From Alphaproteobacteria bacterium (GTDB taxonomy: Bacteria > Pseudomonadota > Alphaproteobacteria > Rs-D84), in assembly GCA_017505705.1 (NCBI GenBank), contig JAFVOS010000011.1, positions 45,449-109,448 of the forward strand: 64,000 nt of DNA. The letters run 5' to 3'. Of this stretch, positions 26,220 through 29,652 are shown one piece after another (position 1 is the first letter of the stretch; each line of letters begins with the position of its first letter). A model generated the notes under the pieces. It did not search any database. It had not been told where the DNA came from and saw only the letters and a program-made list of their open reading frames with translations. The position numbers were made by a program, and so were the translations under genes.

Positions 26220-26843
26220 ATGGAAAAACAAGAAATAAGAACATTTGGTCGCCGTCATGGCAAAAAATTATCCACACGTCAACAGACACTGATTGACACT
26301 GTTTTACCGACCTTAAAGCCAACCACTGGCGACATTTTGGAAATCGGATTTGGTGCGGGCGAACATGTACGTGACCTGGCACGCAATAACCCGAACAAAA
26401 TCATAATCGGCGCCGAACCATTTATGAATGGGGTGGCAAGTTTGTTGTCTGCAATAACCGACCAAAATTCGAATCGGATTTTGGATGAATATTCTGGCAT
26501 CCGTATCTGGGCGGATGATGTGCGTGATTTTTTGCGTGAAACGGATTCAAAATTCGAACAAATCTGGGTCCTGCACCCTGACCCCTGGCCCAAGGCCCGA
26601 CATGAAAAACGCCGATTACTATCTGCAGATTTTTTAAATTTATTATCAAAATATTTATCCACAAACGGTGAAATAATAATCGGCACAGATCACTGGGAAT
26701 ACTTTGACTGGATTTTAGAGCAAATAAAATCCACAACCCTTATTGCAACAATTCCAGACATGGAAATTATTCAAACACGTTATCAGCATAAAAACAAGGC
26801 GGGAACAACCGCCCCAAAATATTTGATTCTTAAAAACGCCTAA
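26220..26843 (+). CDS. trmB: tRNA (guanine46-N7)-methyltransferase TrmB
   Basis: 207 aa. ...ILEIGFGAGEHVRDLARNNPNKIIIGAEPF... is the SAM-binding motif. Matches TrmB length and pattern. Confidence 0.85.
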   Translation: MEKQEIRTFGRRHGKKLSTRQQTLIDTVLPTLKPTTGDILEIGFGAGEHVRDLARNNPNKIIIGAEPFMNGVASLLSAITDQNSNRILDEYSGIRIWADDVRDFLRETDSKFEQIWVLHPDPWPKARHEKRRLLSADFLNLLSKYLSTNGEIIIGTDHWEYFDWILEQIKSTTLIATIPDMEIIQTRYQHKNKAGTTAPKYLILKNA

Positions 26844-27514
26844 TAATTCACAAAAAAATGCAGCCCAGATTGCAATTCTGGCCGCACAGATGCCACCAAT
26901 CGTTGCGCCTGTTCGATTCGTTCTGGTCGATTATCCAATGCGAAATGCAATGCCCCACTAAATTCAGAATCCCACGCATTCAGCATCCCATACACACGCC
27001 CAACAAAGTCTGATTTTCTGCCTGTATCCTTTGTCAAAACAAAGCACACCGCCGATGCATTAATTTTTTTCAAGCACTTAAAAACATTACCCCAATCATC
27101 CGCATCGATATCACCAATATCCAATCCAATTATCAAATCTCGCTCAAAGAACAAATCATCACGAACGAACGCGACCTGATCTACCATATCGGACAATGTT
27201 TTATATCGCACAAACACCTGGGCACCAGACGCCCCATGTTTAAAAGACTGGTTAATTCTGATGGTTAAATCAGACATAACAGTCGTATCAACAACTTCAT
27301 CATTCAAATAAAAACGCCCCAGTATTTTTATATCTGTATTTTCCAGCCATGGCCATATTACAGACACAGCATCCGGCACAACAGACAAATCAATAATTTT
27401 ATGTTGCGTTGCGAATTCCACCATGCGTGCCAAATCTGTTCCCTTGATCGCTGCATCACACCACAGTCCAGTTTGCCCACCAACATTCTGCAAAAAAGAA
27501 TTTAAATCTATCAT
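26840..27514 (-). CDS. Hypothetical protein (224 aa), no recognised domain
   Basis: Start taken at MIDLNSFLQNVGG (27514). The longer six-frame ORF to 27616 would overlap the divergent gene. It has no TM segment and shows no recognisable motif. Confidence 0.45.
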   Translation of the reverse strand: MIDLNSFLQNVGGQTGLWCDAAIKGTDLARMVEFATQHKIIDLSVVPDAVSVIWPWLENTDIKILGRFYLNDEVVDTTVMSDLTIRINQSFKHGASGAQVFVRYKTLSDMVDQVAFVRDDLFFERDLIIGLDIGDIDADDWGNVFKCLKKINASAVCFVLTKDTGRKSDFVGRVYGMLNAWDSEFSGALHFALDNRPERIEQAQRLVASVRPELQSGLHFFVNY

Positions 27515-27558
27515 TGTACTTTCTAGTTTACCACAAATATGATACAATAAAAAACATA

Positions 27559-28494
27559 ATGAACAGAAAAATTGATAATATTTTAATAGGAATCCTGTGG
27601 CTGATTGGTATGACACTGGGAACGTGTTTTTGGTTTAATGTCCGATTCGGATTCAACCTGTTTTCAGCCACCCATTGGGGTTATCTTGCAACACAACAGG
27701 CCACACGACAACCGGTCAGTTTTTGGTTTTATTTTTCATTTATTGCGGCCACATTTATCACCTTGTTTGGTCTGCATTTATTGATACGCCCACACAAACG
27801 CAATATCAAGGTACAATCTGCCACCCATACCAAAACGCCCATTGCGCCAGCACTCACCCCACAACCAATGGCACAAAGACCACAAACAAACACACAGCCA
27901 TCATACGCCCAGCAAACACAATCTGCCCAACCGATACCTGAGGCAACATCAAGCATTCCTTTATCTCGTCCGCCCAGATTAAACATTGCGCCATCAAACA
28001 CATTCTCTGCCGCCACCCCCACACCAATTGCGACACAGATGCCCACACAAAGCGTTACCCCATCTGCGCAATCGATATCTGATCAAACCACAGACAAATT
28101 ACATGAAATCTTTTCATCTGCTGGCTATGTTATAAAACGTGCCCCATACATCAATGGGATTAAGATGACTACACTGGCCATTGGCACGAACGAGGTTTTA
28201 TACCTTGTCGCCACGAACATAGCCACCCACCAGATGCAATCATGTACCAATAAACTGAACCAGATATTTTCTGACACCCTGGACGGTGTTGAAATTAACG
28301 TTCATCCGATTGTTTTACAACCAACAGATACCCAAACACAACAATCAGACATACTAACATTTAATACAATTGACACACTGCGTGAATATATCAGCCAACA
28401 TCGCAATCCACCATTACCATCTGACGATGACGGAAACTTTGACGCATATTCTGACTATATATCCACTGTTATTGAATACATAGGGAAACTGTAA
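27559..28494 (+). CDS. Membrane protein of unknown function with Pro/Thr/Gln-rich linker
   Basis: Start at MNRKIDNILIGILWLIGMTLG. Two N-terminal TM helices, a ~110 aa low-complexity linker (PQPMAQRPQTNTQPSYAQQTQSAQP...) and a ~140 aa C-terminal globular region. The stop overlaps the next start (TAATG). Confidence 0.55.
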   Translation: MNRKIDNILIGILWLIGMTLGTCFWFNVRFGFNLFSATHWGYLATQQATRQPVSFWFYFSFIAATFITLFGLHLLIRPHKRNIKVQSATHTKTPIAPALTPQPMAQRPQTNTQPSYAQQTQSAQPIPEATSSIPLSRPPRLNIAPSNTFSAATPTPIATQMPTQSVTPSAQSISDQTTDKLHEIFSSAGYVIKRAPYINGIKMTTLAIGTNEVLYLVATNIATHQMQSCTNKLNQIFSDTLDGVEINVHPIVLQPTDTQTQQSDILTFNTIDTLREYISQHRNPPLPSDDDGNFDAYSDYISTVIEYIGKL

Positions 28495-28994
28495 TGCAAT
28501 TAAATCAATCGATGGCTGAAAAAATATTGTCTGACATGGGTATGGACGACATGCCAACGATTGAATACACCCCCATACCAACAGCACTATCTGCCGATTG
28601 GTTCAAGAAATACAAAGACCTGTGCCATACATTTGTATCCAGCCTAACAGATTCTGTCCAAGAACTTGCGTTTATGAATCTAAGCCAGGATGAATTTATG
28701 GCATTACTTATGGGTCAACGAATTCCCAGCAACCTATCCTTTCGCTTTCGCATTCCGTTGACCTGGGGCGGCAAATTAGAAATTGACAATATGTTCATGT
28801 GCTGGACATTCCCACACAGTCAAAGATTAGATAAATTCATCATGATGCAAGGGGACGCAAGAACAATCTGGTTACCAAATCCAGCAAAAAAGATATATCT
28901 GCCCGCCCATACCACTGGCGGCGGCGATGGTGGTAATGCAACCGAAGACCGCTTGGCACAAATGGCTGCTCAACTGGCATCTGGACGCGAATAA
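28494..28994 (+). CDS. Hypothetical protein (166 aa)
   Basis: Translationally coupled to the upstream gene. ...RFRIPLTWGGKLEIDNMFMCWTFPHSQ... is a possible GG...N...C..H HNH-like remnant (speculative). Confidence 0.45.
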   Translation: MQLNQSMAEKILSDMGMDDMPTIEYTPIPTALSADWFKKYKDLCHTFVSSLTDSVQELAFMNLSQDEFMALLMGQRIPSNLSFRFRIPLTWGGKLEIDNMFMCWTFPHSQRLDKFIMMQGDARTIWLPNPAKKIYLPAHTTGGGDGGNATEDRLAQMAAQLASGRE

Positions 28995-29009
28995 AAAGGA
29001 ACGTCAACA

Positions 29010-29444
29010 ATGACATGCGACGAATTTTTGTCTGTAATATCTGCACGTGGTGCAATACTTGCGCCACCTGTATCCGAATCGGACATTGCCCAAACTAACT
29101 CTAATCTCCAGCATATGCGTGCTGCTATATTACCAATGTTTATGATTGATTTATATCGTCACACTGGTGGCATTATGCTGGATACTGGGTATATATTTGG
29201 CCCACACGAAATAGAAAACGGTGCCCGCACCCCTGTCCCTGGCATACTGGACATTAATCGTGATATGTCTGTCATACCTGGCATGATTGGCAAAACAATA
29301 TTTGGGCGCAACGATTTATTTTATTTTGCATTTGACGCATTTGGCACATGCTATATGATGGACAACCTGTCACTGCGCATTCTGCGTAAATACGATGACC
29401 CCCACAAGGCCATGATTGATTGCCTAATAGCTGGAAAATTCTAA
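29010..29444 (+). CDS. Hypothetical protein (144 aa), possibly SMI1/KNR4 (SUKH-1) immunity-like
   Basis: ...VSESDIAQTNSNLQHMRAAILPMFMIDLYRHTGGIML... resembles the LPxDYxxFLxxxNGG pattern of the SMI1/KNR4 family. Similarity is judged by eye only. Confidence 0.4.
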   Translation: MTCDEFLSVISARGAILAPPVSESDIAQTNSNLQHMRAAILPMFMIDLYRHTGGIMLDTGYIFGPHEIENGARTPVPGILDINRDMSVIPGMIGKTIFGRNDLFYFAFDAFGTCYMMDNLSLRILRKYDDPHKAMIDCLIAGKF

Positions 29445-29445
29445 C

Positions 29446-29652
29446 ATGAAAAAAATATCTGTATCTTTATCAGGTCACCAAACCAGTATAACCCTGGAAC
29501 CAGAATTTATTGATGTATTAAAACGCATTGCAAACGCACGTGGTGTATCTGTTGCATCAATAATCTCTGACATTGACAATACACGCACCCCTGATTCCAA
29601 CCTGTCATCTGCGATTCGTGTATGGGTCCTGACCCAGGTTATGAAGCATTAA
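29446..29652 (+). CDS. Ribbon-helix-helix domain DNA-binding protein (alphaproteobacterial 'SLSGHQTS' RHH family)
   Basis: 68 aa. MKKISVSLSGHQTSITLEPEFIDVLKRIANARGVSVASIISDID...NLSSAIRVWVL. A 1-nt gap separates it from the upstream gene. Confidence 0.7.
   Translation: MKKISVSLSGHQTSITLEPEFIDVLKRIANARGVSVASIISDIDNTRTPDSNLSSAIRVWVLTQVMKH

Follow-up and report, generated by a model that had tools for sequence, protein, structure and literature searches.

Introduction

The closest known relatives of the genes reported here are pairs in which a His-Me finger gene is followed by a YrhA-type gene. In Escherichia coli K-12, yrhA overlaps the end of yhhZ, whose product is an 'evolved Hcp' that joins Hcp to an HNH domain (PMC5714182, PMC2907695). 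Pairs of the same build are found on IncHI2 and other enterobacterial plasmids. A second comparison is with the accessory proteins of type IV coupling proteins, such as DotM, DotN and IcmSW around DotL in Legionella or the relaxosome and chaperone partners of VirD4/TraD. Here we describe a five-gene locus that invites both comparisons, in a stretch of 64,000 nucleotides (hereafter the window) from an alphaproteobacterium of the order Rs-D84 (assembly GCA_017505705.1, contig JAFVOS010000011.1, positions 45,449 to 109,448 of the forward strand). We labelled its genes A (26840-27514, minus strand), B (27559-28494), C (28494-28994), D (29010-29444) and E (29446-29652). Our preferred reading, to which we give a probability of about 50%, is that the block is a vertically inherited Rs-D84 operon that shares three gene families with the neighborhood of VirD4 in related bacteria, and that it encodes a domesticated, non-catalytic, membrane-tethered complex under the control of a ribbon-helix-helix (RHH) protein.

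Organization and conservation of the locus

An earlier description of the window, made from its letters alone (the sequence-only reading), had proposed five open reading frames (ORFs) at these positions, and all of them are present in the ORF list of the window, with the 224-aa gene A divergent from B across a spacer of 44 bp (27515-27558), as had been stated. The proposal that B to E form one transcription unit also holds, the junctions reading as described and the order being kept in relatives: B and C overlap by 1 nt (ctgTAATGcaa), C and D are separated by TAA, 15 nt with AAGGA inside, and ATG, and D and E by a single nucleotide (TAAcATG). The 3' ends of E and of the convergent ybeY-lnt gene overlap by 4 nt.

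Scanning one genome per species turned up relatives of C in 192 genomes. The best 80 of the 192 were compared in detail, with ten proteins of the window as tblastn queries to establish the order of the block in each locus. The 80 genomes are metagenome-assembled genomes (MAGs) labelled 'Candidatus Enterousia' or Alphaproteobacteria, order Rs-D84, and identical or near-identical proteins were found in animal-gut metagenomes. The synteny that the sequence-only reading had left to be checked is strict: A(-)BCDE keeps its order and strands in 77 of the 80 loci, and the remaining three are cut by contig ends. The 1-nt overlap of B and C is kept in 67/80 loci, while the C-D gaps are mostly 0-25 nt and the D-E gaps mostly -4 to 12 nt. 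Loci whose flanks differ also have the whole block (L047, L059, L076 and L129, the last flanked by rpsT and leuS), and A adjoins B in 77/80 loci, including those without the trmB flank. C is single-copy and at one locus in all 80 genomes, with 59-85% identity, and E was found in 79 of the 80 loci and also in L093, L129 and L130. Identity to the window proteins has a median of 65% for C, 67% for E, 58% for D, 46% for A and 41% for B, compared with 80% for gltX, 75% for trmB and 58% for ybeY-lnt among the neighbors. C is kept on the scale of the housekeeping genes beside it. Since relatives share the block and its identity is far above the background of flanking third codon positions, the five ORFs are real, co-inherited genes and not chance ORFs. 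The block is inherited vertically within Rs-D84 ('Ca. Enterousia'), a genome-reduced gut lineage with densely coding genomes of about 0.75-1.0 Mb that is thought to depend on other cells (PMC12306168). As a separate observation, the divergent Rs-D84-like MAG L129 has an extra 111-aa ORF between D and E (11888-12223) in a different neighborhood, the block being otherwise intact.

C as a putatively inactivated HNH finger and D as its YrhA-like partner

C (166 aa, 28494-28994, plus strand) has no direct match in Pfam or NCBIfam. When a profile of 31 C homologues was searched against 1.84 billion representative proteins, only 74 were found at E <= 0.001, some of them longer and with the domain at the C-terminus. 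One distant homologue, P0287, matches 'HNH endonuclease' genes on 450 enterobacterial plasmids (about 30% identity, E 1e-6) that score above the Pfam HNH threshold; a direct comparison of C with the plasmids gave no match, and the bridge to HNH genes runs only via P0287. The C profile aligns with one plasmid HNH protein by hhalign with an E of 1.5e-5. Single-sequence hhalign of C against YhhZ and Foldseek of the C model against the PDB were not significant, and a PDB profile search with C gave chance-level matches. In the multiple alignment P78, G93, N99, Q119 and P130 are invariant, and the homology reaches well past the beta-beta-alpha core (residues 78-117, 28725-28844, plus strand), so that C is homologous to YhhZ-type HNH domains and, through them, to the His-Me finger proteins.

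The finger motif differs among three groups. In the enterobacterial proteins, including YhhZ, it reads VHHK...N...PYH; in the VirD4-linked alphaproteobacterial group described below it reads VH[LI]K...N...PYH..IH, the general base being lost; and in Rs-D84 it reads FRFR...N...PHS...D, with the metal histidines lost too. Here the positions of the two VHHK histidines are taken by R84 and F85 and that of the PYH histidine by S109, position 85 varies (F, M, C, L), and N99 is the only HNH catalytic residue kept. For the roles of the two VHHK histidines we assume those of colicin E9, with H102 as metal ligand and H103 as general base. Read in this way, the alignment shows a stepwise decay of catalytic residues, from the enterobacterial proteins through the VirD4-linked ones to Rs-D84. 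YhhZ differs from C by its N-terminal Hcp domain and VHHK...PYH motif, whereas C has neither a delivery domain nor the histidines, occupies one locus across the whole order and bears an additional tail (residues 142-154, GGGDGGNATEDRL; 28917-28955, plus strand). This tail, GGDGGNATEDRL, is invariant in the C homologues and missing from the enterobacterial proteins.

D (144 aa, 29010-29444, plus strand) had been called immunity-like in the sequence-only reading, and this is borne out by its relatives, as 28 of 31 D homologues match the NCBIfam YrhA family (NF038335) at E <= 0.01 (best E 6.4e-10, all below the curated cut-off), a family whose genes follow HNH genes elsewhere. The D protein of the window matches it with an E of 1.4e-5 and 25.1 bits against a curated cut-off of 55; D is related to the YrhA family and, unlike YrhA members, stays below the threshold that defines it. 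This weak match is the sole family signal in the Pfam, NCBIfam, PADLOC and PHROGs scans of A to D, the last two of which returned no match. The resemblance extends to gene order: D lies directly downstream of the HNH-type gene C, the plasmid gene that follows the 'HNH endonuclease' is annotated 'YrhA family protein', HNH-YrhA pairs were also found in L096 and L097, and a D-like gene of 143-144 aa follows the C-like gene in distant loci (hhalign probability 92.6%, E 4.5e-7). By sequence and order, C-D is a homologue of an HNH/YrhA pair. As to the resemblance of D to SUKH (SMI1/KNR4) proteins noted in the sequence-only reading, the SMI1_KNR4 profile (PF09346) detected 4 of the 31 D homologues, at E values of at least 0.16, and one distant D-like protein at 0.013, all of them sub-threshold, and bona fide YrhA proteins have no SUKH match in Pfam. 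PDB profile searches with D and with a widened D alignment gave chance-level matches only, and single-sequence hhalign of D against a plasmid YrhA was not significant.

B as a predicted membrane-tethered PD-(D/E)xK protein

The sequence-only reading had described B as two transmembrane (TM) segments, a spacer and a globular C-terminal domain, an architecture reproduced by an AlphaFold model built from 52 sequences. Helices 2-30, 37-48 and 55-76 are modelled with a predicted local distance difference test (pLDDT) score above 90, and 2-30 and 55-76 make up the membrane hairpin, which hydropathy and the model place within residues 1-78 (27559-27792, plus strand), with a conserved inter-helix loop FGFNLFSxxHW. 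Residues 79-170 (27793-28068, plus strand) are predicted to be a disordered linker rich in Thr, Pro, Ser, Ala and Gln (about 77-170 at low confidence, pLDDT 42-57), which holds a conserved RPPRL motif, R137, P138, P139 and L141 being nearly invariant. The C-terminus of B is probably cytoplasmic, because the basic residues RPHKRNIK follow TM2.

The C-terminal domain (residues 171-311, 28069-28494, plus strand; confidently modelled from 171 to 310) is predicted by the model to have the restriction-endonuclease-like PD-(D/E)xK fold, in a NERD-like form. Among relatives of B, 3 of 19 match NERD, with a best E of 0.001, and the sole score reported, 16.1 bits for L093, lies under the 22.1-bit cut-off; a PDB profile search with the domain gave chance-level matches only. 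By inspection of the alignment, no conserved D...(D/E)xK triad is seen. B differs from described NERD and PD-(D/E)xK proteins in that its domain is fused to a two-TM anchor and a disordered linker of about 90 residues, and in its Enterousia form the NERD-like domain also has a hairpin deleted and the triad missing. B as a remnant of VirD4 was considered and rejected, since BLASTP against two VirD4 proteins gave E values of at least 0.18 and in the relatives VirD4 is itself preceded by genuine B homologues.

Linkage of B-, C- and D-like genes to VirD4 in sister lineages

In three MAG loci of sister gut alphaproteobacteria, a distant C homologue lies directly downstream of a VirD4/TraG gene (PF02534, PF10412, PF12696) and a D-like gene comes next. 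A metagenome scan added 30 loci with C-like genes. VirD4 precedes the C-like gene in all 24 of those that have upstream sequence, D-like follows C-like in 28/30 (the other two end right after C-like), and one or two B-like genes stand before VirD4 in 13 of the 13 loci with enough sequence. The gene order is B-like (one or two copies), VirD4, C-like and D-like, with a stop-start overlap of VirD4 and C-like in L092 and VirB6/TrbL genes further upstream in several loci. As several of these loci are near-duplicates, we estimate that they represent about ten independent lineages. L093 bridges the B-like proteins to B (BLASTP E 1e-18 to B and 7e-10 to the VirD4-linked copies), and L089 has a C/D-like pair without VirD4. 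A 312-aa gene after the D-like gene in L087 was considered as a B homologue and rejected.

As with the partners of DotL and of VirD4/TraD, the genes of these relatives flank the gene for the coupling protein; likewise, the B-like protein is anchored in the inner membrane with a soluble domain that is probably cytoplasmic, and the other partners are small and soluble. The B-/C-/D-like set, tightly linked to VirD4 and undescribed in these uncultured gut alphaproteobacteria, provides candidates for new accessory factors or substrates of the type IV secretion system (T4SS). In Rs-D84, VirD4, VirB6 and the other linked genes are absent from the 64-kb window and from within 8 kb of the block in the 80 loci, the genomes beyond being unsearched, and VirD4 would have been lost or moved away from this locus. 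Neither the VirD4 link nor the PD-(D/E)xK fold of B nor the highly conserved promoter region described below figured in the sequence-only reading.

The VirD4-linked loci have further contents of their own (L095 2551-7581; L094 5149-7453; L092 7017-7301). They also carry conserved genes without assignment, for a Gln/Val-rich protein of 412 aa, a Lys-rich one of 414 aa and, beside VirD4, small lipoprotein-like products of 94-101 aa, and they have two VirB6/TrbL paralogues on the opposite strand. Having multiple VirB6 paralogues is characteristic of rvh, the type IV system of the Rickettsiales.

The A-B spacer, A and E

The spacer between A and B (27515-27558) holds a core (27520-27549) with a mean column identity of 0.92 across 76 species, the flanking third codon positions being at 0.54-0.60; the spacer alignment comprises 74 aligned A-B spacers. 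The core contains two divergent extended -10-like boxes, TGATACAAT for B and, on the minus strand, TGGTAAACT for A. In most relatives the A-side box is TGATAAAGT, and the B-side box reads TGATAyAAT. Together the boxes form the dyad TATCA-N6-TGATA in relatives, the left arm being TACCA in the window, where the spacer motif occurs once. Based on these features, the spacer would be a bidirectional promoter and a candidate operator for E, and the mRNAs of A and B look leaderless because each ATG lies 10 nt from its predicted -10 box. A generic promoter scan reported no site within the spacer. The core remained 92% identical over the 76 species while the flanking proteins fell to 30-60% identity, and this 30-bp predicted bidirectional promoter is a ready object for regulation studies.

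A (224 aa, 26840-27514, minus strand), divergent from the shared promoter region, has the conserved motifs WPWLE, GAxGAQVF, RDDLFF and KSDFVGR and no match in Pfam, NCBIfam or the PDB, and its family is unassigned. It belongs only to the Rs-D84 version of the cluster, since no homologue was found in the VirD4-linked loci of relatives. An FVxTK-like motif had raised the possibility of a DeoC-like aldolase, which was rejected on account of a lysine that is not conserved and the missing Pfam match.

E (68 aa, 29446-29652, plus strand), the last gene of the operon, had been assigned to the PF13467 type, and it is a bona fide RHH_4 protein, with an E of 8.6e-23 and 80.6 bits against a cut-off of 25 (residues 2-64 on profile positions 2-66 of 67), which makes it a full-length member of this family of small alphaproteobacterial proteins. 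A literature search on PF13467/RHH_4 found no documented function, and E is absent from the VirD4-linked loci. In type II toxin-antitoxin modules the RHH gene usually precedes a small toxin gene with which it is paired, whereas E is the last of four genes and D stands between C and E.

Interpretation

In the model that we prefer, C and D would bind each other tightly, in the manner of HNH toxins and their immunity proteins, and would not cleave DNA. With the tethered pseudo-nuclease domain of B, this pair could build a scaffold at the cytoplasmic face of the inner membrane that binds or recruits nucleic acid or a protein partner, a role of the accessory kind seen around VirD4 in relatives. E would repress the back-to-back promoters of A and of BCDE through the conserved dyad, in a form of autoregulation. 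The locus is a concrete case in which a nuclease toxin/immunity pair and a domain of restriction-endonuclease fold have lost their catalytic residues and yet are under strong purifying selection, in genomes of less than 1,000 genes where little is dispensable. Through it, one could also test how Rs-D84 bacteria, for which dependence on other cells has been suggested, interact with those cells.

Several points weigh against this proposal. R84, N99 and D113 are invariant in C, and despite its missing canonical residues this protein might have a non-canonical activity. The NERD profile (PF08378) finds no match in the B protein of the window itself, and the conserved dyad may be merely two overlapping promoters. 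Finally, if VirD4 or other T4SS genes sit elsewhere in Rs-D84 genomes, the proteins may still serve a T4SS.

This last point is the core of the main rival explanation, in which B, C and D would continue to act as accessory subunits or adaptors in a functional type IV coupling complex whose VirD4/VirB genes lie elsewhere in the Rs-D84 genome, only the linkage being broken. We regard it as a real if less probable possibility, as it accounts for the strict B-like/VirD4/C-like/D-like synteny in sister lineages with the stop-start overlap of L092, for the VirB6 paralogues nearby and for the high conservation of C and D in Rs-D84, and it suits a lineage thought to depend on partner cells (PMC12306168). 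However, neither VirD4 and VirB6 nor the linked genes were found around the block over the distances given above, and a survey of Rs-D84 genomes names no secretion system, the word 'secretion' occurring 0 times in its text (PMC12306168). A literature search on Rs-D84 and type IV secretion returned nothing relevant. In addition, the metal-ligand histidines are retained in the VirD4-linked forms of C and gone from the Rs-D84 form, a difference that points to a shift in function. In a more speculative scenario, which we consider rather unlikely, the B-/C-/D-like proteins would be unrecognised core partners of the alphaproteobacterial type IV coupling protein, derived from inactivated toxin, immunity and restriction-endonuclease folds, and kept by Rs-D84 after the loss of VirD4 through an indispensable, T4SS-independent membrane role, for example in handling nucleic acid obtained from partner cells.

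The sequence-only reading had held that a toxin/immunity-like module, or a small envelope-associated system under RHH control, would fit, and our results divide the first of these claims: the ancestry is supported by the homology of C/D to HNH/YrhA pairs, while a present active function is disfavored because the catalytic residues are missing, the locus is single-copy and conserved, and C is more conserved than D. An active pair under RHH control, be it a polymorphic toxin, a T4SS-delivered antibacterial effector or an addiction module, would agree with the order of toxin then immunity gene and with the kinship to YhhZ-YrhA-type pairs of polymorphic toxin systems (PMC5714182), and bacteria-killing T4SS effectors are known. 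We nevertheless find it improbable, since the general-base histidine is gone in the whole alphaproteobacterial family and the metal-binding ones in Rs-D84. C is moreover a 166-aa stand-alone protein that shows neither an N-terminal trafficking domain nor the strain-level polymorphism and sporadic distribution of polymorphic toxins, and it exceeds both D and ybeY-lnt in conservation, the opposite of the variability expected for conflict genes. The window holds no paralogues or orphan immunity genes, and PADLOC gave no matches.

That the five genes are not one system but unrelated lineage-specific genes packed by genome compaction is very improbable, for although the genome is below 1 Mb and densely coding (PMC12306168) and the VirD4-linked loci have neither A nor E, the five genes move together where the flanks change (L129, L059, L076), the B-, C- and D-like families co-occur in distant lineages, and both the stop/start overlap and the shared promoter are conserved.

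Neighboring genes

Downstream of E, a 680-aa ORF (29649-31691, minus strand) fuses the rRNA-maturation RNase YbeY (residues 31-137) to the apolipoprotein N-acyltransferase Lnt (LNT_N and CN_hydrolase). Every Rs-D84 locus that was examined has this ybeY-lnt fusion, even the deeply branching L093 and L129, where it is 596 and 611 aa long, respectively. Between E and ybeY-lnt, some species (L038, L010, L013, L020, L032, L039, L045 and L049) have a variable island of 1.9-3.6 kb; the island of L038 (9200-12730) codes for a protein of 151 aa and for two Cys/Gln-rich ones (250 and 666 aa) whose N-termini are hydrophobic and signal-peptide-like. Next to the fusion, a 625-aa protein (31711-33588, minus strand) combines a phage-lysozyme (GH24) domain with C-terminal TPR repeats and weakly matches the gene-transfer-agent endolysin BgtA, its identity across species being very uneven (20-76%). 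It is followed by a gene for a Ros/MucR-type regulator (33589-33864, minus strand).

On the other side of the block, two adjacent Cys/Thr/Ala-rich ORFs of 366 and 330 aa (21617-23675, minus strand) lie upstream of HlyIII-gltX, and near the N-terminus of the 366-aa product is a stretch that is hydrophobic and resembles a signal peptide. The identity of gltX to the window copy looks bimodal in L007-L086, at about 90-94% or 74-84%, independently of the neighboring genes, a hint that gltX may have undergone recombination or been replaced by other alleles within the clade.

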